This document shows, in pieces, positions 113-38,700 of a stretch of DNA of 64,000 nt. The stretch covers positions 29,358 through 93,357 of the forward strand of contig NZ_JAXMIH010000012.1 in assembly GCF_034366625.1 (NCBI RefSeq), in the 5' to 3' direction. A program made the translations under genes and the position numbers. This DNA comes from Prosthecobacter sp. (GTDB lineage Bacteria; Verrucomicrobiota; Verrucomicrobiia; Verrucomicrobiales; Verrucomicrobiaceae). A model generated the notes under the pieces. It was not told the origin of the DNA, searched no databases, and worked only from the letters and a program-made list of their open reading frames with translations. Within the stretch, counting starts at the first letter, position 1, and every line of letters starts with the position of its first letter.

Positions 113-1543
113 TCAAGCCTTGTCAGGCTTTTTGAGGCTCAGAGTGAACTGCGTGTGGCTTCCCGCCTCCGTGTCGATCTTCACTTCGCCGCCCATCTGC
201 TGGATCATCCGAAAGCAGATGCTCAACCCCAGGCCCATGCCCTGGCCGACCTGCTTCGTGGTGAAAAAGGGATCAAAAACCTTCGAGAGGTTCTCTTTCG
301 GAATGCCCGTTCCGTTGTCCCTCACGATCAAATCGATGCCGCCCGCTGTTTCCTGCGCCTTGATCAAAATTGTCGGCGATGGTCGGCCCGCCAGCGCATC
401 CAAGCTGTTCTGTACCAGGTTGAGGAAGATTTGAATCAGATAGTTTTCGTCACCCTGGGCGATGACGCCCGCCGGAATCTCATCCACAAGCGTCACCCCA
501 CGATCACTGATCTCCTTCGCGAGCAAACGCAGCGCCTTGCGTGACACGTCCTGCAAATTCACCGGCCGTGCCCCGCGATTTTCAGGATGTGCGAACGTGC
601 GCAGATCAGAAACGATCGCTGCCACACGGTCGATGCCCTCGCCAATGTCCTCGGCGATGGTGTTGAACGCCTCCGCGACCTCAGGAGGCAACGCTTTGCC
701 CTTTTTCTTTAGCAGATACACCGCCGACTTCACGTAGTTCAGCGGGTTGTTGATCTCATGCACGATCCCGGCGCTGAGACGGCCGATGGACGCCAGCTTT
801 TCGCTCTGATCGAGCTGCGCCTCGGTTTCACGCAAACGTTTCAGCGTGGTGGTGAGTTCATCGTTGCGTGCGGCCAATTCCTCACGCTGGTCCTCCACTT
901 TGCAGCGGCTGGCAAATTCACGCAGGCGGATCGCATGATGCTGACGGCTGCCAAAGTAAAGCACCACGCAGTTCAGCAGGATGAAGCCTGTGTTGTTCAC
1001 AAAGATGCCCAGCGCACGCGGATCGTCACTGCCGCTCAGATTCGGCAGTGTGGAGGCCAGATACGCGAGCACGACGAGCCCCAGCGTGAGACCGATTTCG
1101 CGAAACGTCCAATGGAACACAAACGACGTCGCCACGATGCACAACGTCAGCCCGGCATAGTAGCCGGAGCCGGGATCACCACTCAGGTAGATCATGAAAC
1201 AGATCATGAGCGCCGGCAGCAGTGGCAGGATCACCGGATAAGCGCGGCAGTACTTTCTCCCCAAGGACCCATTCAGCGCCAGAAGCAGCGGCACACAGCT
1301 CGCCGCACAGGCCAGCCGCAGCACCAGAAACTCCCAGTAGCGCTCTGGATAGGCCATCCAGTCCAAAAAACTGCACAGCGGCACCAGAATCATCACGAAC
1401 CACGCTCCCATACGGGCATTGCGCAGATTCAACTCCTCCTGCTCTCGTTCGAAACGCCCGGACCGCGGCACTTCGCCACCATGAGCCCGTTGGCAGACGG
1501 GGTCATGCCTGGGAACGGTCATCGAGGAGGAAACCTCTGCCAT
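113..1543 (-). CDS. Membrane-bound sensor histidine kinase (about 6 TM helices, HisKA + HATPase_c)
   Basis: H-box GIVHEINNPL, N-box QIFLNLVQNSLDA, G1 VRDNGTGI, F-box VFDPFFTTK, G2 GMGLGLSI. Six hydrophobic segments and no large periplasmic domain. Start uncertain (1543 or 1522; track gives 1576). Confidence 0.93.
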   Translation of the reverse strand: MAEVSSSMTVPRHDPVCQRAHGGEVPRSGRFEREQEELNLRNARMGAWFVMILVPLCSFLDWMAYPERYWEFLVLRLACAASCVPLLLALNGSLGRKYCRAYPVILPLLPALMICFMIYLSGDPGSGYYAGLTLCIVATSFVFHWTFREIGLTLGLVVLAYLASTLPNLSGSDDPRALGIFVNNTGFILLNCVVLYFGSRQHHAIRLREFASRCKVEDQREELAARNDELTTTLKRLRETEAQLDQSEKLASIGRLSAGIVHEINNPLNYVKSAVYLLKKKGKALPPEVAEAFNTIAEDIGEGIDRVAAIVSDLRTFAHPENRGARPVNLQDVSRKALRLLAKEISDRGVTLVDEIPAGVIAQGDENYLIQIFLNLVQNSLDALAGRPSPTILIKAQETAGGIDLIVRDNGTGIPKENLSKVFDPFFTTKQVGQGMGLGLSICFRMIQQMGGEVKIDTEAGSHTQFTLSLKKPDKA

Positions 1544-1709
1544 GGCTGCGAAAGACATAAATTTTACAAATTCCATAAATTATAACCCTCTTTTGTCATG
1601 CCCGGCAATGGCTAATTACAAAATCCTGACACCTGACTGTCATTTGTCTCACAATCTCCTCAGCCTCGGCTTGGCAAATCTGGCCTGCAACGCCACCATC
1701 CGCCGCCCC

Positions 1710-3832: not shown

Positions 3833-4378
3833 ATGAAGCACCTGCTTTACGCTCTGCTGATGCTCACCAGCGTCGCCTCCGCGCTCGAACTGCCCGCCAC
3901 CGACGGCAAGACCCACGATCCTGCCGCCGCTGGCGACAAGAAGGCCGTCGTGCTCTTCTTCGTCTCGCCGTTCTGCTCCACCACGCGGCCTTTCATGCCG
4001 GAGATCAACCAGATCGCCGCCGATTACAGCGACCGCGTCGTCGTTTACCTCGTGCATTCCGATCCCGAGATCACCACCGAGGTCGCCTTGGAGCACGCCA
4101 TCCTCTCCGAGGTCAAAGCCACCGTGCTGCTCGACAAGGAGCAGGCTCTCGCCAAGCAGTTGAAGGCCAAAATCACGCCCGAGGCCGTTGTTCTCTCACC
4201 CAAGGCCGAGACACTCTACCAAGGCCGCATCAACGACCTCTACCTCGGCCCCACCAAGCGCCAGCGTGCCGCCACCACCAAGGATCTGCGCGACGCCCTC
4301 GACGCCATCCTCTCCGGAAAGCCCGTTCCCACGCTGCAACACGAGGCACAGGGCTGCAAAATCAGCAGCATGAAGTGA
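3833..4378 (+). CDS. Secreted redoxin / AhpC-TSA family thioredoxin-fold protein
   Basis: Signal peptide MKHLLYALLMLTSVASA, single Cys (SPFCSTT), ITPEAVV, YQGRIND, C-terminal QGCKI. Confidence 0.8.
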   Translation: MKHLLYALLMLTSVASALELPATDGKTHDPAAAGDKKAVVLFFVSPFCSTTRPFMPEINQIAADYSDRVVVYLVHSDPEITTEVALEHAILSEVKATVLLDKEQALAKQLKAKITPEAVVLSPKAETLYQGRINDLYLGPTKRQRAATTKDLRDALDAILSGKPVPTLQHEAQGCKISSMK

Positions 4379-5681
4379 CGAGGCTCGTTCTTGCGTCCGC
4401 TCTCGCGTTGTGCTTCCTGCGGTGCAGAGCCGTTCCATACTCGCGCAGCTTTTCGGCGCTGCTGCTCCATGAGAATTCCTGGGTGACGCGCTTCAGCGCA
4501 TTGTCAGCGATGGTTTTTCTCAGGGTGTTGTCCTTGAGCAGCCGCAGAACGGCCTCACTCAGCGACGGAGCATCGTCTGCTAGAAGGATGTCCTGCCCGT
4601 TGCGCATGTGAAGCCCCTCCGCGCCCACGGTGGTGCTGACAACTGGCACACCAGCGGCCATGGACTCAAGAATTTTAAGGCGCACCCCACTGCCTGCCCT
4701 CAGAGGGACGACGAGCAGGGCGCACTCACGAAGAGGCGTCAAAACCTCCTCCACCTTGCCGGTCACTTCGATTCCAATGCTTGCGGCAGCAAGTCGCTTC
4801 AGGGCCTCGGGAGGCTCACGGCCAATGACACGAAAGCGGACTTCAGGCATGGTTTCCCGTATGAGAGGCAATATCTTCTCGATGAACCAAAAGGCGGCGT
4901 CCGCATTCGGCGGCCAGTTCATGGAACCAAGGAAAGCGATGCAGGGAGATGGAGATTGCTCAAGCACTGCCGGCGGCAGTCCTCGTGCATCGGGATTGGC
5001 TCCTGCGGGAACGCAGCCAAGGATGTTGTCCAACTTGTAGCTGTCGCGGTGATAAGCGGCGTCTTGATCGGAGATGGTGGTGACACCTTCAAACAAACGG
5101 CACAGCTCAGGCTCGCGGCGCTTCATGCGGCGCGCCATCTCATAAAAAAAGAGGCGCAGGAAAGGATTGCGCTGCAACTCCGACAAGCGCCTCCAGATCA
5201 GGGCTTCGACGTTATGCTGGAGCAGAATGGCGGGAGTGGCGCGCTGTGTTGCCCAGCCATCGAAGACCGGGGCCACAAAGAGCCCGTCCACAATGATGAG
5301 GTCAAAACGGCCGGTCTGTTCAAGTTCACGTGCGCGCTGCGCGAGTTCTTCGCTGTTAAACATGGTCAGAGAGAAGGGCTCTCGGGAGGCGAACAGATTG
5401 CGCAAGATGGGCCAAAGGAAGCTGAAAAACCTGCGCGGAGCCCATTCAGGCATGAGTTGAGAGAAAACGCATTCCCGCTCATGCGCATAGGGAACGGATG
5501 AAGAATAGACAGCCTCCCTACGGCTGTGTGATTCCAGCACATGCACATGACAGTGCTGCATCAGGTGCGTCAGCAGGTGGTACGAATAAATGATACCGCC
5601 GTTGTGGAGTGGCTGGCAGCCTCCCACCCGGACCCATAGGATGCGTAAACGATCAATAGAGGGAGGGGAGGACAAGGTCAT
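4362..5681 (-). CDS. Glycosyltransferase family 4 (GT-B)
   Basis: FLGSMNWPPNADA, VPLRAGSGVRLKILESMAAGVPVVSTTVGAEGL (EX7E), LLQHNVE. Resembles the GT4 sugar transferases of exopolysaccharide/PEP-CTERM-type loci. Confidence 0.92.
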   Translation of the reverse strand: MTLSSPPSIDRLRILWVRVGGCQPLHNGGIIYSYHLLTHLMQHCHVHVLESHSRREAVYSSSVPYAHERECVFSQLMPEWAPRRFFSFLWPILRNLFASREPFSLTMFNSEELAQRARELEQTGRFDLIIVDGLFVAPVFDGWATQRATPAILLQHNVEALIWRRLSELQRNPFLRLFFYEMARRMKRREPELCRLFEGVTTISDQDAAYHRDSYKLDNILGCVPAGANPDARGLPPAVLEQSPSPCIAFLGSMNWPPNADAAFWFIEKILPLIRETMPEVRFRVIGREPPEALKRLAAASIGIEVTGKVEEVLTPLRECALLVVPLRAGSGVRLKILESMAAGVPVVSTTVGAEGLHMRNGQDILLADDAPSLSEAVLRLLKDNTLRKTIADNALKRVTQEFSWSSSAEKLREYGTALHRRKHNARADARTSLVTSCC

Positions 5682-5832
5682 GCTTGATAACGCTTAAAGG
5701 TCACCGCTGGCGATAGGAACTCTCAGGTTGGCTGCCGATGCATCAAAATGCAACATTCTCGCGGCTTGAACGCGCAAATGAGTCGTTGAAACCAGTTTTG
5801 TCAGCAGGTTCTGCCCGGAGTTCGGAAAGTTT

Positions 5833-6372
5833 TTACCACACCAGCACCTCTTCTTCCGCTTCCTGCGGCTCCTCCCTTTTAACAGTCGTCCAACGGTACA
5901 TAATCGGATATATCGGCCGTTTGTCCTCGAAGAAGTCGGAGACAAAAGGTGGGCCGAAGGTGGTGAACCCAAAATGCTGATAGAGCGACAGCAAGTGCTT
6001 GCCTGTTTTGGTGATCAGGTACTCAGCCTCATTTTTGACCGCGTACTCATTGATCCCCATGCACAAACTCAAGAGATGGACGCCGGCGCTCCCCTTGACG
6101 GTACAGGCGCGTGAAAGCTCAAGACTCAATTTGGCCGACGGCAGCACCAGATCCTTCAATTGGGACTCGCGCATCATTTCAAACTGCCTCACTTCATCGC
6201 TGCGCAGAACCCGCGTGACGCCCAGCACGCTTCCTTTTTTGTCGAAGAGGGCAAAATGATGGGCCGGCTCATCAAATTCATCCAACACGTGGGTTATGGT
6301 CTCGCCGTAGGAAGCGCGACGAAACTTCTCGATGAGTTTTTGATTTGATCTGAATTCAATTTCTCTAACCAT
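5833..6372 (-). CDS. GNAT-fold N-acyl synthase, LuxI/acyl-HSL synthase or FeeM N-acyl amino acid synthase-like
   Basis: FRRASY, LDEFD, LGVTRV and ELSR occur in the order of the LuxI conserved blocks (R..F, D.FD, G..R, E.SR); LYQHFGF near the C-terminus. The LuxI Trp is not evident. Start moved to ATG 6372. Confidence 0.72.
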   Translation of the reverse strand: MVREIEFRSNQKLIEKFRRASYGETITHVLDEFDEPAHHFALFDKKGSVLGVTRVLRSDEVRQFEMMRESQLKDLVLPSAKLSLELSRACTVKGSAGVHLLSLCMGINEYAVKNEAEYLITKTGKHLLSLYQHFGFTTFGPPFVSDFFEDKRPIYPIMYRWTTVKREEPQEAEEEVLVW

Positions 6373-6534
6373 TATTGCCGAAAAACAAGGTGTTCTATGG
6401 TGCTGTAGGAAGTGCCGTTGCCGCTCTCTTGAAACACAAAGTCTGCTGAAACCGGTAGTGCTAAAGATGCAGACCTGAAGCCTTGCGTCAATGTTCACTC
6501 TTGCCAGCCATGCGGCCTATGCGAAAGCTCAAGG

Positions 6535-7929
6535 ATGGGCAGACTGTTGAATCTTATTCGTGCGTCCAAATCGATCCGTCACGCCCAGAGCTTGAGCCGG
6601 CACGACATGCTGGCATTGCAGGAACGGCGTTGGCGCGCACTTGCCCGCCGTGTCTTTGCCACCAGTCCGTTTTACCGGCGCCAACTGGCTGGCATCGACC
6701 TTGACCGGTGTTCCCTGGCAGACATTCCGACACTGACCAAACCGATGCTCGTCGAACATTGGGACGAAATCGTTCCAGACCCACGGTTGCACTGGGCCGC
6801 GCTTGATAAGCATCTGAAGGATCCGAAAAACTGGGGCAGACTGCTTCATGGTCGATGGATGGTGAGCATGACATCAGGAACGTCGGGTGCCGCCATCGCC
6901 ATTCCACACGATATCGCCTCGGTGGACTGGAATCACACGGCCCATGCCACTCGAAATGCACCGTTGCCGGAATCAACCTCGACACCCCGGTTGCCGCTGT
7001 TCAGGAAACGCCCGATAGCGGCGGCGTTCATCTGCTCGTCCGCGCCTTCGGTCTCAGCGGCGCTTCTTGGAACACGTCCGTGGATTGGCTCCCTTTTTTG
7101 CGACTATCAGCCGATCAGTGTCACTGCACCCTGGGAGGAGATCATCGCCCACCTGCACCGGATGAAACCGGACATCCTCATTGGCTATGCCTCGTTGATC
7201 GGACGCCTCGCACAAGCCAAGATCGAAGGGACACTCAAACTGGATTTGCCGTCACCCGGTGGAGCCATATCCACGGGAGGTGACTGCCTCACGCCGGGCA
7301 TTCGGGCTCTTTGCAGGCAAGCCTTTGGCATTGAGCCCATGGATGGCTACGGCTGTGGTGAAACCCTCGGCCTTGCACGCCAATGGGCCGGCATGAACCA
7401 CATGGTTGTGTTTGAAGACCTGGCGGTCTTGGAGGCAGTGGATCAAAACGAACAGGAAACCGGCCCGGATGATCTTTCAGATCACGCCCTCGTCACCCCT
7501 CTGTTCAACACCGCCTTGCCCCTCCTGCGATATCGCCTTGATGATAGGGTGCGCTTCGGTCCGGTTCAAGAGGGGTGGCCGTTCAAAGTCATCCACGAAC
7601 TGAGCGGGCGAAGTGCCCTGACCTACACCTTTCAGGTGCCTGAAAAGCTGGTGTATGTCGGCACCAAGTTCATCGCGGTCATGCAGCACCAGCCCCAGGT
7701 GGCTTGTTACCAGTTCTGTCAAACAGGCCCGAGCTCCATTGAATGCCGCTTTGTCCTTCAACCCGGAGCGGATCAGGCCCAAATTCAGGCCCGGCTGGAC
7801 GCTTCCATACGCCAGTGCCTGGATGAGGGCGGCTGCGGAAAAGTATCGGCCAAAGCCACCTTGGTTTCCCATCTGGAGCCTGACCCACGCACAGGAAAGG
7901 TGGAGCAAAATGTGCCCCTCAAGGCCTAA
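6535..7929 (+). CDS. Phenylacetate-CoA ligase (PaaK)/CapK-like adenylate-forming enzyme, paralog 1
   Basis: SPFYRR, IPTLTK, P-loop MTSGTSG, DGYGCGE, PLLRYRLDD, TGK near the C-terminus. Confidence 0.85.
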   Translation: MGRLLNLIRASKSIRHAQSLSRHDMLALQERRWRALARRVFATSPFYRRQLAGIDLDRCSLADIPTLTKPMLVEHWDEIVPDPRLHWAALDKHLKDPKNWGRLLHGRWMVSMTSGTSGAAIAIPHDIASVDWNHTAHATRNAPLPESTSTPRLPLFRKRPIAAAFICSSAPSVSAALLGTRPWIGSLFCDYQPISVTAPWEEIIAHLHRMKPDILIGYASLIGRLAQAKIEGTLKLDLPSPGGAISTGGDCLTPGIRALCRQAFGIEPMDGYGCGETLGLARQWAGMNHMVVFEDLAVLEAVDQNEQETGPDDLSDHALVTPLFNTALPLLRYRLDDRVRFGPVQEGWPFKVIHELSGRSALTYTFQVPEKLVYVGTKFIAVMQHQPQVACYQFCQTGPSSIECRFVLQPGADQAQIQARLDASIRQCLDEGGCGKVSAKATLVSHLEPDPRTGKVEQNVPLKA

Positions 7930-8215
7930 TGAGCGCTTGGTCATCGGACTGGACCCGCTCAAAGGTTTGAATGGTGACCCGCGCGTCACGGACACCCAGG
8001 TGCGCCAGACCGGCCCCCGCAGTATTGGATATTTGTTTTGTGCCGCTGATGGCATGGATAGTCGCGGCATGGCTGACGAAATCATGGCCAGCATGCGCGC
8101 CTGCCTCGACATGTGTGAGTGCCAGCAGGTGATCTGCACCGTCAGACATGTGCCTTTTTTGGAACCCTCCCCCAATACCGGGAAGGTTGAGCGCTGGGTT
8201 CCATTCAGAGTTTAA
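7925..8215 (+). pseudogene. Free-standing extra copy of the PaaK-like ligase C-terminal domain (remnant, small protein or frameshift extension)
   Basis: Frame +1 relative to paralog 1 reads PNERLVIG...DPRVTDTQVRQTGPRSI...EIMASMRACLDMCECQQVIC...LEPSPNTGKVERWVPFRV. This is colinear with paralog 2 PEERVVVG...DPRVINWQARQTGPASI...EILANMRQHLDSCACHQVTC...IEADPRTGKVNQFVP. No in-frame ATG at its start; TTG at 7937 is possible. Confidence 0.75.
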
Positions 8216-8330
8216 GTCGGAGCAGACCTGTGGAGCATCACTTCTGGCAAATCATTTCCGCCCGGTCCGACCTGTCGAACTCACGCACGACTCCTTTGCA
8301 ACGGCATTTTGAGCCATCACATGTGCGTGA

Positions 8331-8990
8331 TCATGACTTTGTGAGATCAAACACGTAGCCGGCCGCAAAGTACTTCAGGAGGAATCTTTGTTTGAATCCG
8401 GGGGCAACCACATCTTCTAAATAAATTTTCTTCCTTTGATTCAATTTTAATCCCGTCTCGTTAAATGCAGCTCGGTAATGAGCTTGTGTGTGTCTGAAGG
8501 CGAAGGTGGTGAAGTTTTCAAGCAGCTTGATTTCCTTTGTTTTCGTCCGCCAGTGATCAGACCTCATGTCGGAAATAAGAACCCTGCCCCCCACCTTGGT
8601 GAGTCGCGCTATTTCCTTCATGGCTGAGCGCAGGTCTTCCACATGGTTCAAAACCAGGCTGCAGACAACCATGTCGAATGGCTCATCAAGCGGGATGGCG
8701 TTCAAATCCGAGTGCATAAATTTCACACCCAGTCCCGCCGCTTTTTTTCTGGCCACTTCCAGCATCTTTAGCGAAAAATCAACGCCGGTGACCTCCGCAC
8801 CGGCCTCTGCCATGCGGATCGCGTGCCGCCCCGTGCCGCACCCCACATCAAGAATTTTCTTTCCGGCCACATCGAACTCGATCTGCCTGAGGGTCTTCTC
8901 TTCGGCTCTCACCAAGAGGTTGGTGGGCTCATCATACATTTCTGCCCAACGTTGATAAAGCTCATGAACTTCGAGGTTCTGCATTTGCAT
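8331..8990 (-). CDS. Class I SAM-dependent methyltransferase
   Basis: Motif I ILDVGCGTGRH, VTGVDFS, FDMVVCSLVLNHV, GGRVLISD. Confidence 0.93.
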   Translation of the reverse strand: MQMQNLEVHELYQRWAEMYDEPTNLLVRAEEKTLRQIEFDVAGKKILDVGCGTGRHAIRMAEAGAEVTGVDFSLKMLEVARKKAAGLGVKFMHSDLNAIPLDEPFDMVVCSLVLNHVEDLRSAMKEIARLTKVGGRVLISDMRSDHWRTKTKEIKLLENFTTFAFRHTQAHYRAAFNETGLKLNQRKKIYLEDVVAPGFKQRFLLKYFAAGYVFDLTKS

Positions 8991-9115
8991 CCATGCTTAT
9001 GCTATATCGGGAACGCTTTCTCGCTGCAATTTCATTACTAGAGCTGATTTTTGACCAAATCTGATCCCTTCGAGCTTCAGGCTTGCCAGCTTTTGCCTGT
9101 GCGACATCATCCACT

Positions 9116-10528
9116 ATGGGCAGGCTGTTCAACCTCATCAGTGCGTCCAAATCCCTTCGTCACGCCCAGAACCTGAGCCGGCCCGCCATGCTGGCATTGC
9201 AGGAGAGGCGCTGGCGCGGGCTCGCACGCCATGCACTGAAGACGAGTCCGTTTTACCGCCGCCACATGGCGGGCCTTGATCCAGATCGCTGCTCCCTGGA
9301 AGACATCCCGCCTCTGACCAAGTCGATGCTCATCGAAAACTGGGATGAGATCGTGTCAGAACCCTGCCTTCGCCAGGCGGCTCTGGAAAAGCATCTGGAA
9401 AACCCGGCGAACTGGAACCGTCTGCTCCATGGGCGCTGGATGATCAGCCATACGTCTGGAACCACGGGGCAAAGCGTGATCATTCCCCACGACATCGAGT
9501 CGGTGGACTGGCTGCATGCCGTCCATGCCGCGCGCAACGGCCCCGCAAACACCGCCTCCCGCCCGCCGTGCCTGAATCTCTTTCAGCGCAGGCCTCGCCT
9601 CGCGGCATTCATCTGGGGAACGGCGCCCTCCACCTCCTCTGCCTTGTTTCACACACGTCCATGGGTAGGAGCTCTGTTCGGCAGCCATCACGCGATCAAT
9701 TCAGGCGCCGCTTGGGATGACATCTTGCGGCAACTGAACGAGCTCCAGCCTGACATTTTGATCTGCTACGCGTCCATGCTCGAACGTCTGGCGCTCTCCC
9801 AACTCAATGGCAGCCTCAAACTCGCTCTCTCCCATCCGGCTGCCAGTGTTTCGACCGGAGGCGATGTCCTCACTCCGGGCATTCGCGCCCTTTGTCGGCA
9901 GGCATTCAATCAAGAACCTCTCGACGGTTACGGCACCGGTGAATCACCCGCCATCGCACGGCAGTGGCATGGCATGGACCGTCTCATGCTGCTGGAAGAC
10001 CTGACGGCCTTCGAGGCTGTCGATCGTGACGAGAAACCTGTCACAGAGGGCGAAATCTCAGACCATGTGCTGGTGACTCCGCTCATCAACCGGGCGGTGC
10101 CTCTGCTCCGCTATCGCCTCGACGACCGAGTGCGCATCGGCCCCGTCCAGCCGGGCTGGCCCTTCCGCAGCATCGCTGAAATCCTGGGCCGCACCACGAT
10201 GACCTTCGCCTACCATATTCCGGAAGAACGGGTGGTTGTCGGCATGAACGTATTCGGCATCTACGAGACGGACCCCCGCGTCATCAACTGGCAGGCACGT
10301 CAAACAGGTCCAGCCAGCATCGAGTGCGTGTTCACCATCTTTCCAGGAGTCGATGTCGCGAAACTGACGGCCGAAATCCTGGCCAACATGCGCCAGCATC
10401 TGGATTCTTGCGCCTGCCACCAGGTGACATGCGCCGCGAAATGTGTGCCCTCCATCGAGGCCGACCCTCGCACAGGCAAGGTTAATCAATTCGTGCCTTT
10501 GCCTGCCAAGGTGCGCTCCGCCTCGTGA
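9116..10528 (+). CDS. Phenylacetate-CoA ligase (PaaK)/CapK-like adenylate-forming enzyme, paralog 2
   Basis: HTSGTTG P-loop, DGYGTGE, PLLRYRLDD. Colinear with 6535..7929 from MGRL(F/L)NLI onward. Start moved to ATG 9116. Confidence 0.85.
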   Translation: MGRLFNLISASKSLRHAQNLSRPAMLALQERRWRGLARHALKTSPFYRRHMAGLDPDRCSLEDIPPLTKSMLIENWDEIVSEPCLRQAALEKHLENPANWNRLLHGRWMISHTSGTTGQSVIIPHDIESVDWLHAVHAARNGPANTASRPPCLNLFQRRPRLAAFIWGTAPSTSSALFHTRPWVGALFGSHHAINSGAAWDDILRQLNELQPDILICYASMLERLALSQLNGSLKLALSHPAASVSTGGDVLTPGIRALCRQAFNQEPLDGYGTGESPAIARQWHGMDRLMLLEDLTAFEAVDRDEKPVTEGEISDHVLVTPLINRAVPLLRYRLDDRVRIGPVQPGWPFRSIAEILGRTTMTFAYHIPEERVVVGMNVFGIYETDPRVINWQARQTGPASIECVFTIFPGVDVAKLTAEILANMRQHLDSCACHQVTCAAKCVPSIEADPRTGKVNQFVPLPAKVRSAS

Positions 10529-31221: not shown

Positions 31222-34200
31222 ATGCGCCGCTCTGATTCCATCTGCGTTTTCGTCCTCATGCTCTTCGGCATGAGCGTGACACAGGCGGTGGAGGCAAAGG
31301 TTCAGTTCAATCGCGACGTTCGTTCCATCCTCTCGAACAAGTGTTTTCGCTGCCACGGCTTCGATGAAAAGAGCCGCAAGGCGGACCTGCGGCTCGATCA
31401 ACGTGAAGGAGCCATCGCGAATCACGATGGCAAACAGGCTGTGGCCCCCGGAAAGCCGCAGCAGAGCGAATTGATTCATCGCATCAACACCACCGAGGCC
31501 GATGATCTCATGCCTCCGCCGGAGTCAAAACAATCGCTGACCTCCGCGGAAAAGAACATCCTGCGGCGCTGGATCGCCGAAGGCGCGGAATACGAAGCCC
31601 ACTGGTCCTTGATTCCTCCCAAACCGTCTTCCCCACCGCAGAACTCAATCGACGACTTCATCCTCGCTCGTTTGAAACAAGCAGGTCTCAAACCAGCACC
31701 CGCAGCCTCTCGCGAAACGCTGCTGCGCCGCGTCAGCCTCGATCTCACGGGCCTGCCACCGACTTTGGCGGAACTGGACGCCTTCATCTCCGACCAAGAT
31801 CCGCAAGCCTACGAGCACGCGGTGGACCGGTTTCTAGCCTCAAAGCATTTCGGTGAGCGCATGGCCGTCGAATGGCTCGACGCGGCACGCTACGCCGACA
31901 CCAACGGCTATTTCGGCGACAAGACACGCAGCCTGTGGCCGTGGCGCGACTGGGTGATCGACGCCTACAACCGCAACCTGCCCTTCGACAAGTTCACCAT
32001 CGAGCAGCTTGCCGGTGATCTGCTGCCGAACGCCACCACCGCGCAGCGCATCGCCACCGGTTTCAATCGCAACCACATGGCCAACAACGAGAGCGGCATC
32101 ATCGACGAGGAATACCGCGTCGAATACGTCGCTGACCGTCTCGAAACCACCGGCACCACCTGGCTCGGCCTCACCATCGGCTGCGCACGCTGCCACGATC
32201 ACAAATACGATCCCATCACCCAGCGTGAGTTCTACCAGCTCTTCGCCTTCTTCAACAACCTGCCGGAGCAGGGCCTCATCAAAGCCGACAATCCACCGCC
32301 GTTGCTGAGCGTGCCTTCGACAGAACAGGAGACAAAGCTGCAACAACTCACCGAGGCCAGAAAACAAGCCGAGCATGATTTCGCCCCCATGGCAGAGGCT
32401 TTGCGCCAGCAGATCGCACAATGGGAAAAAAGCCTCATACTGACGGCGTCACCGAGCGCGAAGCTCGTGACGCATCAGGATTTCAACGAGCGCATCGATG
32501 CCAGGCAGGTCGGAACGAGCTTCGAGTATCCCAGCGGCATCCTCGGCCAGTCGGCCAAGTTCGATGCCACTCAACATGCCGAATGGGACGGTCAGTTCGA
32601 TGCCGATGCCGCCTGGACCATCGGTGTGTGGCTGATGGCGGACACTTCGCTGAGCTGCGTGCTGTCCAAGATCGAACCGCAGGGCAATCGTCGCGGTTTC
32701 GAGGTGATCTGGCAGAAAGGCCGCTTCCAGATCAACCTAGTGAACCGCTGGGGATCGAAAGCCATCGAAGCCGTCACCGTGGAACCCGTCTCAGCGAAAA
32801 AATGGCATCATCTGGTGCTCAGCTATGATGGCTCACGCAAAGCCGCGGGCTTGAAAGTGTTCCTGAATGGCAAGCTGGCCGCGTTGAACCTCTTGAACGA
32901 CACGCTGGATGACTCCTTCGCCAACACGGAACCGCTGCGCATCGGCCGACGCGATTCTGGACTCGGTTTCTACGGCCAGCTTGATGAGTTGCGTGTCTTG
33001 CAACGCACCACGACTGCTGAGGAGGCCGAATCGTGGTTCTGGAGCGAGCGGCTGCGTGGCATCATCGCCCAACCCACCGCGAAACGCAGCAGTGCTGACG
33101 CGACATTGCTTCAAGATTACTTTGTCGATCATCAAGCTGATGCCACGACGAAGGGGTCACATCTGCGCGTGCAGAAAGCGAAACAAGCCGAAGCCGCTCT
33201 GCGCGAAAGCATTCCCACCACGCTGGTGATGCAGGAGATGGACAAGCCGCGCACAGCTCATGTGCTGACTCGCGGCCAGTACGATCATCCGACCGATCCA
33301 GTACAGCCGGGTGTGCCAGTGGCCTTGTCAGCGTGGCCTGCAAACGCGCCGAAGAATCGTCTCGGCTTCGCCAAGTGGTTGGTCTCGCCCGACAATCCGC
33401 TCACAGCACGCGTGGCGGTGAATCGGCTCTGGCAGCAATGTTTTGGCGAAGGACTCGTGCGCACCGTGAATGACTTCGGCTCGCAAGGTGAAGCACCGAC
33501 ACATCCCGAACTGCTCGATTGGCTGGCCCTGCGCTTCATGCAGAGCGGCTGGGATGTGAAGGCGCTGCTCAAGCTCATCGTGATGAGCGCAACGTATCAG
33601 CGGAGTTCACAGTTCTCCGTGCGTGATCCCTCCAACCTGTTGCTCGCACGCGGCCCCTCCTTCCGCCTCAGCGCCGAAATGGTGCGCGATCAAGCGCTCG
33701 CAGTCTCGGGTCTGCTCGTGCCGCACATCGGGGGGCCAAGCGTGCGGCCCTATCAACCGCCCGGCCTGTGGGAGGCGGTGTCTTACAACGGCGAGGAAAC
33801 TTATGTGCCCGATACCACTGACGGCCTGTGGCGGCGCAGCCTCTATTCTTTTTGGAAACGCCAGTCACCGCCCCCGGCCCTGCTCACCTTTGACAGCCCG
33901 ACGCGTGAAAAATGCACCGTGCGCCGCGCCCGCACCAACACACCGCTGCAAGCGCTCGTGCTGCTCAATGACGAGACCTATGTTGAAGCTGCACGCGCTT
34001 TGGCGGCGTGGACACTGAGCAACCAAGGCGTGGACGAGTCACGACTGACCATTGCTTTCCGCCGTGTGACCTCCCGCATGCCTGCGGCGGATGAGATTCA
34101 AACACTCACAACAATGCTGCGCTCACAACGCACGCGCTTTGCCGCTCATCGTGAGGAAGCAAGCAAACTCATCGCCATCGGCGCTTCCAAGCATGGCCGC

Positions 34201-35777: not shown

Positions 35778-38700
35778 CTACTTTTTCACCAGCGACTCCA
35801 AGTAATCGAGCAGGCTGGCGAACTCCAGCACCGTGAAGTTCATCATCAAGCCGGGCGGCATCATGCTCATGGGCAGCTTCTGCCGGTCTTTGATCTCGCT
35901 GGTCTTAAACGTGAACTCCTGCGCGGCGATGTTCCGCAGTTTGACCTCGCTGGCTCCTTCCAGGGTGATGAAGCCCATCTGCGCGGTGCCGTCCTTCATG
36001 GTGATCATCTCGCTGGCGAAGCCCTGGGCGATGGTTTTGTTCGGATCGAGGATGTTTTGGGCCAGATCGGGGCGCTTGTAGGTTTGGGCGATGTTGCCGA
36101 GGTAGGGGCCTTTTTGGGCTTCGGTCTCCTTCACGGTGTGGCAGGCCACGCAGGTGGCTTTGGTGAAGATTTGCTCGCCGAGGGAGATGTCACCTTTTTC
36201 CTTCAAGACGGCGGCGAGGGCTTCCTCGGGCTTCAAGGTCATGAGCTTGGGCGTTTTGTCTTCGATCTTGGTGATGCGCATGGCCTTTGCAGCACGTTCG
36301 GCGGCGCCTTTGACCTCGGCATCGGGATCATCGAGCGCGGCGAGCACTTTGGCGGCGCTGGGCATGTGCTTGGAGGCGCTGATGGCGTCGATGATGAGCT
36401 TGCGGTGCTTCGGATCGGCCCAGCCTTTGTCGAGCGCCTTCTGCGTGAGCTGGATGGACTCCGGGCTGCCCGTCTTGCGGTTCGCGAGGTTCAGCAAGGC
36501 GGCATTGGCATACATCGACACCGGCCACTCGGCCTTCTCGGCGATCTGCTCAATGAGCTGATGGTGGTTTTCGAGCTTCGGCGCGTTCAAGAAGGCTGCC
36601 AAAGCGGCATCGTAGTCCTTGCCGGAGTCGGGGAGCTTCTTGAGCGGCTCCAGGGCGGCCAAGGTGGCGGAGACGCCGTCGGCGCTGTCGGTTTTGGAGA
36701 GGGCGGTGATCGCTTGGGAGAGAGTAGTGGGGCCATTCTTGGCCCCTGCATCAGAGGGGGCAGGAATGCCCCCATTACGGACCAGCTGGACCAGCAGCGG
36801 CACCGCCTCCGCCGGAATCTCCTCCGCTCCAGCTAGCTGCGCCGCCAACTCCGGTAGCACCTTCGGGTCCTGCTTCGCCAGGTCGAGGATGCGCTGCTGT
36901 GCCTCGTTGAACTGGATGCGGTTGCGGTTCAGTTCCTTCACCAAAAAGGCGGCTTCCTCCGGCGTGGCCTTCGCCAGCGCGTCCTTCAGTGCCACGGCGA
37001 TCTTCGGCGTCTCGCTCCAGGCCTCTGGCTGGTAATACGGCCCCCGCGTGTCCGGCCGCGTGCCCCACGAATCGCCCTTCCACTCGCCATCCTTGAAATG
37101 CAGTCGGCACAGCGCCGCGAGGATTACTTTGCGATGAACCTCTGCCAGCTTGGGATTCTCAGGGGAATAAGTGCTGACATTTCTTGTTCGAGAGAGTTCC
37201 TGCAACAGTCTGTCCACCACAGCCGGGTAGTGTAATAAAGCTAACACCTCACATCCACGTGCTGGATGGTCTGAGTTGAGCGATGGAGCACCAATCAAGT
37301 CGATTTCCGTTGGAGACAGAATCACTCCGGTTGTCCCGTCATTGCCGATCTGGTTGACGAGCTTCGTAAGGTCAGCCGTGCCTTCGATGGCGTTGGCTAA
37401 TGCTCTCCGTGCTGTATGAACCACGACTGCGTCGCCGGACAACCCTTGCAATGTCCCAGCCTCGTAGAGCCACGAAATTAAGTGATCGCTCAGAGGCGTT
37501 TTGCGCTTTGTTCGAAGCTCGTTACGATGATGCTCAAAGAGCCTTGCTCCAGAAACTAAAGCCGCGATTTGCGCCCGCACATCCTTGCTCTTAATCGCAT
37601 CGGCTACTGCCTTAGCTCCGCCAAGTTGAGGAGACATTCCAACGCTATTGGCTGATGAGTTTGCCGCTGCATCTTTTTCGCTCAGGCGACGAATGAGGAA
37701 AGGCAAAAGATCGGGATCAAATTTTCCGAAGGAATATTCACTGGTGGCAGCGAACACCTTTCCATCGCGTGCGTTTGATTTGGCATCAATACTCCAAAGC
37801 GCTGCGACCCGAGACGCCAATGCTCGATTGGCATCGAGAATAACCGATGAGACCGACTCTGCCTTTTCGGAAGATTTTGGCCGCCTCATGATTTCCCTCT
37901 GCGCCTCCATCCTCCGGCGATTGCTCGCGGACTCCAGCACCTTCACCAACTCCTCATCCTTCGCCTTCGGGAAATCCGGCAGCGGCTCGGCTTTGAAGCC
38001 CTTTGGCTTCACCTGCACGATGTAACCGACATCCGGGCCGGCCCAGCCGAAGGTGGCGCCTTTCCAACTGGCGCAATAGACGCGGCTCAGGCCATCGACA
38101 TCGGCGTCGGTGGGGCGGGTCATTTTGATGAAGGGCTCGGGCTTGCGGGTTTCTTCAAACGTCGCGCCTTTGGGCTTCACCTGATGATGCCAGAGGGCAC
38201 CGCTGCCCCAATCGCAGGTGAAGGGGGCGTTGTTCCAAGCGCCGAAGCCGGGTTCGTCGATATAGACCGCGCCGGTGCCGCTGCCGCCGCCGTAGTCGGC
38301 GAGGGGCTGGATGCACTCATCGTTGAAGTTTTTGTAGAGGCGCGGGTAACCGTGGTCGTCGAGGCCGGTGAAGTGGTGGAAGCGCACGTTCCAGCCGCCG
38401 CCGTCGTTCGTGTTGTCGCGGGCGAACATGTCCATCAGCGGGCTGATGGCGACTTCGAGGATGTTGCGCGTGCCGGTGGAGTAGATTTCGAGACCGGTGC
38501 CGTCGGGCCGCACGCGGATGACGCCGCCGCCGCGATGCTGGAGCGTTTTACCATCGGTGCCGGTGGCCTTCAGGAAACCGAAGTCGCCACCCGCGATGTA
38601 AAGCCAGCCGTCGATGCCGAGGCTGAGTCCGTTCGTGGTGTGATCCGCCGGGCGATCTTTGAAGCCGTAGGCGATGCCATTGACGAGGATGTTTTGCTTT

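Follow-up and report, generated by a model that had tools for sequence, protein, structure and literature searches.

What might a gene carrying the motif blocks of an autoinducer synthase do in a bacterium in which the matching receptor is not to be found? This question is raised by the gene at positions 5833 to 6372 (minus strand) of the 64-kb stretch of DNA analyzed herein (hereafter, the window). An earlier reading made from the letters alone (the sequence-only reading) had described its product as a LuxI/FeeM-fold synthase without a LuxR partner, encoded divergently from a coenzyme A (CoA) ligase-like gene in a probable verrucomicrobium, and had proposed a non-canonical acyl-amide synthase whose acyl donor this neighbor could supply. 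On balance, and by analogy with characterized enzymes, we lean towards an N-acyl amide (N-acyl amino acid-type) synthase, which would form the core of a portable cassette, and not towards a LuxR-sensed N-acyl homoserine lactone (AHL) system.

The synthase gene and its family

The open reading frame (ORF) of the gene starts with an ATG at 6372, ends with a stop codon at 5833-5835, and encodes 179 amino acids. A longer GTG-initiated frame from 6498 was also considered and found to be unsupported, as all of the 14 homologues began with M-V/I-x-E-I. The product matched the Pfam family PF13444 (Acetyltransf_5, N-acyl amino acid synthase/OlsB family) with 26.5 bits (E 1.1e-5) against a cut-off of 22.4, and its AlphaFold2 model reached a mean predicted local distance difference test (pLDDT) score of 86 and a predicted template modeling score of 0.80, the last 15 residues excepted. 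Comparison with 11 orthologues gave ratios of nonsynonymous to synonymous substitution rates (dN/dS) of 0.02-0.11, with the synonymous sites near saturation. In view of the above-threshold profile match, the model confidence, and the low dN/dS values, the gene is real, and by these sequence comparisons it is a functional protein-coding gene under strong purifying selection. Its supposed verrucomicrobial origin was also borne out, since the closest homologues and the syntenic loci came from genomes and metagenome-assembled genomes of Prosthecobacter. The host is thus Prosthecobacter (Verrucomicrobiaceae); its genome comprises 6.6 Mb, is 96.7% complete, and carries the gene on contig 12.

The family of the protein was assigned on the basis of hidden Markov model (HMM), profile, and fold comparisons. 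PF13444 was the only family whose threshold the protein passed, and all of the 18 family members scanned matched it as well. In the HMM comparison that the sequence-only reading had called for, neither the LuxI-specific Autoind_synth profile (PF00765, threshold 24 bits) nor the Pfam FeeM profile gave a match to the target at E ≤ 1. Eight of the 18 family members matched Autoind_synth weakly, and a single, distant sister-group member passed it (26.2 bits). The FeeM profile was matched with 18 bits by one member (P0016) and was passed with 30-50 bits by the sister group (P0022-P0026; 29-37% identical). An hhalign comparison of the clade of the target with the FeeM-like sister group gave a probability of 100% (E 9e-41) over the full length.

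The fold comparisons pointed in the same direction. When the model was searched against the Protein Data Bank (PDB) with Foldseek, the highest full-length template modeling (TM) score was obtained with FeeM (2g0b, 0.66-0.69, E 2.7e-7), accompanied by the AHL synthases TofI (0.66) and LasI (0.64) and by MesI (0.64-0.66), and generic GNAT acetyltransferases scored 0.52-0.62. When a widened family profile was compared with all PDB sequences, LasI was the sole significant match (E 7.5e-6), BjaI and FeeM following with E-values of 0.03 and 0.5, respectively; LasI was reached with this widened profile only, the single-sequence and clade-only searches having returned nothing relevant. By these profile and model comparisons, the protein is placed in the branch of the GNAT superfamily that comprises LuxI, FeeM, and the N-acyl amino acid synthases (NAS), nearest to FeeM and outside every curated sub-family. 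The clustering with generic GNAT acetyltransferases that the sequence-only reading had named as its refutation was not seen in either kind of comparison.

The alignments identified R18, Y22, D31-x-F-D34, A37-H38-H39, G51-x-x-R54, E85-L-S87-R88, and C90 as the most conserved positions. Among them, R18/R19, D31-E-F-D34 (followed by A-H38-H39-F), G51-V-T-R54, and E85-L-S-R88 stand in the order seen in LuxI, as had been noticed from the sequence alone; these blocks proved to be invariant across the family and to align with LasI, and in the profile search three of them (D-x-Y-D, G-x-W-R, and E-L-S-R) paired one to one with LasI. The first block (6271-6282, minus strand; A37-H38-H39 at 6256-6264) is invariant in two alignments and pairs with D-G-Y-D of LasI, and the second (6211-6222, minus strand), with its invariant R54, pairs with G-C-W-R. 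The third block (6109-6120, minus strand) lies on the strand formed by residues E83-91 of the model and pairs with E-L-S-R; its E85, S87, and R88 are invariant in all of the 18 sequences (18/18). This E85-L-S-R88 block on strand β4 is presumed to provide the general base together with an oxyanion/thioester-binding motif.

Beyond these blocks, the hallmarks of an AHL system were missing. No Trp was found within residues 1-161 of the target or of any clade member, which confirmed the suspected loss of the LuxI Trp, a conserved residue of the N-terminal SAM (S-adenosylmethionine)-binding segment (W34 in LuxI, W33 in LasI). The segment between Y22 and D31 is also shorter than in LasI by approximately eight residues. 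The absence of LuxR from the 64 kb held and could be extended: the LuxR-type autoinducer-binding domain (PF03472) was detected neither in the window nor in the whole 6.6-Mb genome, nor in any of 81 genomes of the genus, in a search that did detect the Escherichia coli SdiA control. Genome searches with PF00765 were likewise empty; they were given no weight, because their controls also went undetected. A literature search retrieved no described verrucomicrobial LuxI/AHL system. Because the protein has neither a match to Autoind_synth, nor the Trp, nor a receptor, it is not a LuxI-family member, and we see no evidence for AHL-type signaling; nothing points to such a role, and the gene is not a classical quorum-sensing gene. 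What stood of the earlier proposal was accordingly the acyl-amide synthase of the LuxI/FeeM/OlsB-like branch, as supported by PF13444, fold, and profiles, and what went unsupported was a LuxI-type signaling role.

Distribution of the family and its C-terminal tail

An exhaustive profile search of 1.84 billion representative proteins returned no more than 61 relatives with E ≤ 1e-3, 13 of which had E ≤ 1e-10. Of 121 genomes of the taxonomic family, 20 carried the gene, all of them in one of 15 genera, and the tailed synthase family described below is restricted to that one genus, Prosthecobacter. The cultured strain Prosthecobacter fluviatilis KACC 12649 carries one orthologous and one paralogous locus. 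A maximum-likelihood tree resolved three well-supported clades. Clade A consists of the target, 12 orthologues (80-90% identity), and more distant relatives (approximately 68%). Identity to the target is 40-46% in clade B and 52-59% in clade C, and the latter includes a second copy in the target's own genome. This paralogue (contig 19, 184523-185050, minus strand; L003/L033) encodes 176 amino acids, is 53% identical to the target, ends with DDSVFVW, and adjoins dprA without a ligase. Clade C also holds the gene that fills the redoxin-sulfatase slot (see below) in the metagenome locus L004.

The distant sister group was represented by short contigs only. In two of three contexts, a class I SAM-dependent methyltransferase gene lies at most 20 bp upstream on the same strand (L037, 1047-1757; L038, 821-1594), and no ligase was present on the three contigs. 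We did not count this linkage as conserved, since the similarity of these methyltransferases to the one in the window is generic (25-28%). A metagenome scan with the FeeM-like sister group added a single 1.4-kb contig.

The three clades share a distinctive C-terminus. In the target, a linker ends with the tail E173-E-E-V-L-V-W179-COOH (5836-5856, minus strand); the linker appears to be disordered, with pLDDT values below 50 for residues 165-179. Every sequence examined in clades A, B, and C ends with (E/D)3-V-(L/F/M)-(V/I/C)-W-COOH, and the tail is invariant despite the saturated synonymous divergence, whereas the preceding linker is modeled with low confidence and varies in length and sequence. 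Among the 26,219 open frames in the genome with a length of 100 amino acids or more, the two synthase paralogues alone have such an ending, and the FeeM-like outgroup lacks it. A role as an obligate ligase-docking motif was considered and rejected, as the genomes G077 and G062 keep the tail without any ligase of the family. One may speculate that the tail, whose C-terminus is formally an N-acyl-tryptophan, represents a tethered mimic of the product or substrate. In any case, this family-specific tail poses a separate small puzzle in enzyme regulation.

The cassette and its PaaK-type ligases

The divergent CoA-ligase-like neighbor recognized from the sequence (6535-7929, plus strand, 464 amino acids; ligase 1) was identified as a PaaK-family adenylate-forming enzyme by HMM searches, PDB comparisons, modeling, and synteny. 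Together with a second ligase (ligase 2; 9116-10528, plus strand), it matched the phenylacetate-CoA ligase PaaK among the PDB sequences (E 5e-7). The AlphaFold2 model of ligase 1 (pLDDT 87.5) retrieved PaaK1 and PaaK2 in Foldseek with E-values of about 1e-22, and it also matched BT_0428, NatL2, AjiA1, ClxA, and 2-hydroxyisobutyryl-CoA ligase (E 1e-17 to 1e-22). Its sequence, like that of ligase 2, includes the motifs of the ANL superfamily, namely, in ligase 1 numbering, the P-loop TSGTSG (G115), YGxxE (E276), RYRxxD (R332-Y333, D337), and the C-terminal catalytic Lys (G454-K455), the listed residues being invariant. On these sequence and model grounds, ligase 1 is a complete ANL enzyme with the PaaK fold. 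In contrast, its matches to the NCBIfam PaaK, F390-synthetase-related, and DVU_1553 families were weak (at best 46 bits against a cut-off of 300), and it scored 29 bits with the curated PaaK equivalog, whose cut-off is 646. With scores so far below the cut-offs, ligase 1 is regarded as a family member and not as an orthologue of phenylacetate-CoA ligase. The ligase family is essentially confined to Prosthecobacter and its relatives.

Ligase 2 is 57% identical to ligase 1; its ORF opens at 9083, and its homologues start at M-G-R-L-F, which corresponds to 9116. Its orthologues occur in four other loci (L009-L012) with 69-70% identity. Between ligase 1 and the methyltransferase gene lies the remnant of a third ligase (7925-8209, plus strand), a pseudogene fragment of the C-terminal domain that is 36% identical to ligase 1 (residues 369-463) and whose translation resembles the C-terminus of ligase 2. 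An intact ligase of this third type adjoins the methyltransferase gene in L009 and L012. Elsewhere in the genome, contig 29 carries a distant PaaK-like gene with 30% identity approximately 4 kb from an exosortase gene (32818-33423 and 37359-38144), which suggests a separate PEP-CTERM/exosortase locus with an adenylate-forming enzyme of its own.

To follow these associations, the window proteins were mapped onto 27 genome loci. The ligase is divergently adjacent to the synthase in all of the 13 clade A loci, which share one chromosomal slot flanked by genes for a redoxin and a sulfatase. A second ligase is added in four of them, the methyltransferase in two, and a family 4 glycosyltransferase (GT4) in three. 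In two distant relatives (approximately 68% identity; L039 and L040), the cassette was found in another genomic neighborhood, again linked to ligases (2/2): two ligases stand divergent to the synthase, followed by an amidohydrolase, with the methyltransferase and GT4 coming next in L039, the one contig reaching far enough. That this gene set recurs in another genomic setting shows the cassette to be portable. The cassette is also accessory, as judged from the lower GC content (0.51-0.53 for the synthase and methyltransferase genes versus approximately 0.61 in the flanks) and from its occurrence in 20 of the 121 genomes and one of the 15 genera. In clade B, the ligase is present in 12 of 14 loci and heads a same-strand operon.

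Among the optional members, GT4 (4362-5681, minus strand, 439 amino acids; Pfam Glyco_trans_1_4) immediately follows the synthase and is read in the same direction, a position that it also takes in L010, L014, L016, and L039. The methyltransferase (8331-8990, minus strand, 219 amino acids) is a class I SAM-dependent, UbiE-like protein matching Pfam Methyltransf_11/25/31; the GC content of its gene is 0.51, and its orthologues were found in L009 and L012 (67-71%) and in L039 (50%). The clade B operon (L019, 4952-10555; L031; L041; L042) runs from the PaaK-like ligase, where present, through a Zn-dependent MDR-family dehydrogenase and two FemAB-like proteins to the tailed synthase; the FemAB-like proteins are two paralogues of approximately 390-410 amino acids that match PF13480 weakly. 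In L039 (5769-6596) and L040 (8504-9424), a short amidohydrolase of the TRZ/ATZ family directly follows the synthase, with matches far below the cut-offs. The TRZ/ATZ family includes aminofutalosine, methylthioadenosine/S-adenosylhomocysteine (MTA/SAH), and 5'-deoxyadenosine deaminases. Its presence might reflect the handling of SAM by-products, or it might be unrelated.

Within 4362-10528, ligase remnant aside, there is no unassigned ORF of at least 60 amino acids and no gap of more than 163 bp. FabD and a histidine kinase with six transmembrane segments were also considered as members of the system and rejected, as they belong to the conserved chromosomal flank and are absent from the L039 and L040 cassettes. 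The kinase (113-1576, minus strand; of the MASE8 type in L004), together with glycerate kinase, FabD, and redoxin, forms this flank whatever the slot holds, and there is no support for it as a cognate sensor.

The synthase and ligase 1 share a divergent intergenic region of 162 bp (6373-6534). An alignment of 14 such regions revealed the element TTCACTCTTGCC-N13-TGCGA at about 6493-6525 (plus strand), just upstream of the start codon of ligase 1, which is kept in the 14 loci including the differently placed L039, while the remaining intergenic sequence diverges. As far as this sequence conservation indicates, the element may act as a promoter or operator; a promoter and terminator consensus scan of the divergent region was uninformative and revealed no sigma-70 consensus.

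Proposed function, competing explanations, and known systems

In the reading that we favor, how acyl transfer proceeds, which substrates are used, and in what order the steps follow are all inferred from what is known of FeeM, LuxI, OlsB, and TyzA. The synthase would take an acyl group from a phosphopantetheine thioester, either acyl-CoA or acyl-acyl carrier protein (acyl-ACP), and use it to acylate the primary amine of an acceptor of the amino acid type, which would yield an acyl amide. Glu85, within the invariant Glu85-x-Ser87-Arg88 strand, would act as the base, and the Asp31/Asp34/Arg54 blocks would bind the acceptor. The synthase would be the constant core, joined by variable partners: one to three PaaK-type ligases, an optional SAM-dependent methyltransferase, GT4, and the amidohydrolase, or, in the paralogous clade, the Zn-dependent dehydrogenase and two FemAB-like proteins. 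The methyltransferase, GT4, and the amidohydrolase would then act on the product, leaving a tailored N-acyl amide that may carry a methyl or glycosyl group.

The ligases are expected to act in the same pathway in either of two ways, by making the CoA thioester donor or by adenylating the free carboxylate of the N-acyl product for coupling or cyclization. Donor supply, as proposed in the sequence-only reading, is favored by the archetypal chemistry of PaaK, which is CoA ligation, by the precedents of the CoA-using BjaI and TyzA, and by the invariant pairing in clade A. Tailoring is favored by the loss of the ligase where the synthase stays, by the varying number of ligase copies (one to three), by the PaaK-type ester and amide formers NatL2, AjiA1, and ClxA, and by the precedent of TyzB, which adenylates the carboxylate of the product of TyzA, a FeeM/BjaI-like synthase using acyl-CoA, and cyclizes it to tyrazolone (PMC10404671). 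The linkage to a ligase was thus confirmed and found to recur in the orthologous, distant, and clade B loci, whereas the donor role assigned to it is only one of two live readings, because the ligase is not obligatory; we have a slight preference for tailoring.

Several results weigh against an N-acyl amide synthase at the core of such a cassette. The target itself gave no match at E ≤ 1 to the FeeM profile (PF21926, threshold 27 bits), it scored 15.9 bits over 33 residues with the NasY/exosortase-associated acyltransferase TIGR03694 (cut-off 111.95; 23.9 bits for a clade B paralogue), and it scored 24.1 bits with the NCBIfam OlsB family NF052554 (cut-off 350). The lowest Foldseek E-value (1.2e-8) belonged to glyphosate N-acetyltransferase, but with a lower TM-score. 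No ACP gene was found in the cassette, for which the use of a housekeeping ACP is possible. Clade C and some clade-B-like (B') genes have no adjacent ligase, and two genomes, whose sole synthase is a clade-B-like copy, keep the dehydrogenase-FemAB-synthase operon with no ligase of the family anywhere. Since the synthase is maintained without a ligase both in clade C/B' and in two whole genomes, the ligase is not obligatory for the family; it is a frequent but facultative partner. Finally, a GT4 of the exopolysaccharide-associated type, co-transcribed in some loci, also fits a decoration of glycans.

This last point leads to the strongest competitor, which we consider unlikely: a module in which the acyltransferase, GT4, the methyltransferase, and the ligases together decorate a surface polysaccharide or glycolipid with acyl or aminoacyl groups and make no free small molecule. 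The top curated match of GT4 is TIGR03087 (stp1), a glycosyltransferase of the PEP-CTERM/XrtA system (185 bits, cut-off 317; 183 bits for the L039 orthologue), and GT4, wherever it occurs, is the next gene downstream of the synthase in the same orientation. In addition, the synthase matches the exosortase-associated TIGR03694 weakly, and the genome has three exosortases, one of them approximately 4 kb from the distant PaaK-like gene. However, all of these TIGR scores are far below the cut-offs, and GT4 is confined to four of 14 orthologous loci (the window and three of the 13 genome loci) and one of the two distant relatives (L039), being absent from every clade B or C locus. No exosortase, flippase, polymerase, or chain-length gene lies near the target, the exosortases being on contigs 15 and 29 and the target on contig 12. 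To our knowledge, moreover, the acceptor acylated by every characterized PF13444, FeeM, or LuxI enzyme is an amino acid or SAM, never a sugar.

The tail allows the N-acyl amide reading to be carried further, in a form that we would call a long shot. The tailed synthase might constitute an undescribed sub-type in which the flexible Glu-Glu-Glu-Val-Leu-Val-Trp-COOH terminus gates the active site as a product or substrate mimic, or docks a partner. The cassette might then make a Prosthecobacter-specific non-AHL acyl-amide signal or antibiotic, possibly an N-acyl aromatic amino acid, tailored by the PaaK-type ligases as amide- or ester-forming enzymes.

Quite improbable, in our estimate, is that the protein is a generic small-molecule GNAT acetyltransferase of the detoxification or resistance type, the ligase neighborhood being without functional meaning. 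Glyphosate N-acetyltransferase heads the Foldseek list by E-value with many acetyltransferases following, some family members match Acetyltransf_10 and Acetyltransf_1 weakly, and the PF13444 score of the target is just 4 bits over the threshold. Nevertheless, the profile similarity to solved structures was significant for the LuxI type only (LasI, 7.5e-6), PF13444 was matched by 18 of 18 members, the sister group passed FeeM, and only the LuxI/NAS branch has the D-x-F-D, G-x-x-R, and E-x-S-R blocks. Nor does chance explain why the ligase linkage recurs in two paralogous clades and again in another genomic setting.

A true LuxI-like synthase is highly improbable. Such an enzyme would use SAM as the acceptor and an acyl- or aryl-CoA made by the ligase as the donor, as in RpaI and BjaI, to give a homoserine-lactone-type signal sensed by a non-LuxR receptor. 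This view draws on the identical motif order, on LasI and the CoA-dependent BjaI as the top profile matches among solved structures, on the sister-group member that passes Autoind_synth (26.2 versus 24 bits), on the PaaK-type aryl-acid ligase as a constant neighbor in the orthologous clade, and on the TRZ/ATZ amidohydrolase, with its MTA/SAH deaminase relatives, in the L039/L040 cassette. It is opposed by the lack of an Autoind_synth match at E ≤ 1, by the missing SAM-pocket Trp and approximately eight residues of the N-terminal segment, by the absence of PF03472 from the 81 genomes of the genus, and by the literature search, which yielded no verrucomicrobial AHL system; the amidohydrolase match is weak, and the adjacent SAM-dependent methyltransferase explains this enzyme equally well.

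The least probable of all is a membrane aminolipid synthase (OlsB/GlsB-like) making the lyso-form of ornithine, glycine, or another amino-acid lipid, for although the OlsB L-ornithine N-acyltransferase is the top NCBIfam match and PF13444 is the OlsB family, the score is far below the cut-off (24 versus 350 bits), the target (179 amino acids) falls short of OlsB-type proteins by approximately 80-100 residues, its neighborhood holds no OlsA-type O-acyltransferase, contig 5 of the genome already carries a bifunctional OlsF-like gene (406 bits), and an accessory spread (20/121 genomes) is unlike a core membrane lipid function. That OlsF-like gene (contig 5, 86572-88443; L001, 412-2283) encodes a 623-residue bifunctional aminolipid synthase with GlsB-like and GlsA-like halves (406 bits, cut-off 620), and is the probable source of the membrane amino-acid lipids of the organism.

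Returning to the favored N-acyl amide synthase, the locus represents on present evidence an orphan module for biosynthesis whose enzyme class is already known, rather than a system of a new kind, and its new details are the tail and the PaaK pairing; the paralogues, the portable cassette with its methyltransferase, GT4, and amidohydrolase, and the invariant tail all go beyond what the sequence-only reading had noted. The literature searched contained no study of such an enzyme in Verrucomicrobia, nor any case in which an enzyme of this branch is paired with PaaK-type ligases. The N-acyl amides of FeeM-, NasY-, and LuxI-like enzymes include quorum signals, antibiotics, human receptor ligands, and biofilm modulators such as the planctomycetal stieleriacines, and the cassette offers a compact and testable entry point of two to six genes into verrucomicrobial secondary metabolism.

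Compared with known systems, ligase 1 shares the fold, the P-loop, RYRxxD, and the catalytic Lys with the PaaK family (PaaK1/2 and the aryl-acid adenylating ester/amide synthetases NatL2, AjiA1, ClxA, and BagE), whereas its identity to any solved member is only 15-20% and its curated scores are far below the cut-offs. The LuxI-type AHL synthases (LasI, 1RO5; BjaI, 5W8C; TofI, 3P2F; PF00765) resemble the target in the block order R...[FY]...D-x-[FY]-D...G-x-x-R...E-x-S-R, in the most significant profile match (LasI, E 7.5e-6), and in the fold (TM 0.64-0.66), and differ from it by the PF00765 match and the Trp of the SAM segment, both lacking in the target, and by the PF03472 receptor lacking in the genus. 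FeeM, the N-acyl tyrosine synthase from soil environmental DNA (2G0B, PF21926), is the top full-length fold match (TM 0.69), has a similar size (approximately 180-200 amino acids) and the same E-x-S-R catalytic strand, and defines the profile passed by the sister group, which is homologous to the target clade over the full length. FeeM reportedly works with the ACP FeeL. In contrast, the target has no ACP gene nearby and no PF21926 match of its own, the profile similarity to FeeM is insignificant (E 0.5), and the target clade has the acidic-VLVW tail and PaaK-type ligase neighbors.

The remaining comparison is with the NasY/TyzA clusters for tyrazolone, stieleriacine, and thalassotalic acid (TIGR03694, PF13444). 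In these, the partner is a ThiF-type enzyme and not a PaaK-type ANL ligase, a nitroreductase is present that the window cassette lacks, and the synthase is approximately 60 residues longer; the target scores 15.9 against 112 bits with TIGR03694 and is accompanied by GT4 and the amidohydrolase as extras. The likeness lies in the overall composition, with a PF13444-type synthase whose partners are a UbiE-like methyltransferase and an adenylating enzyme that uses ATP. Clusters of NasY with a methyltransferase and a ThiF-like protein make N-acyl tyrosines in Planctomycetota, a sister phylum within the PVC group (PMC12479983), and by analogy these planctomycetal combinations of NasY, methyltransferase, and adenylating enzyme would be the nearest described counterpart of the Prosthecobacter cassette.

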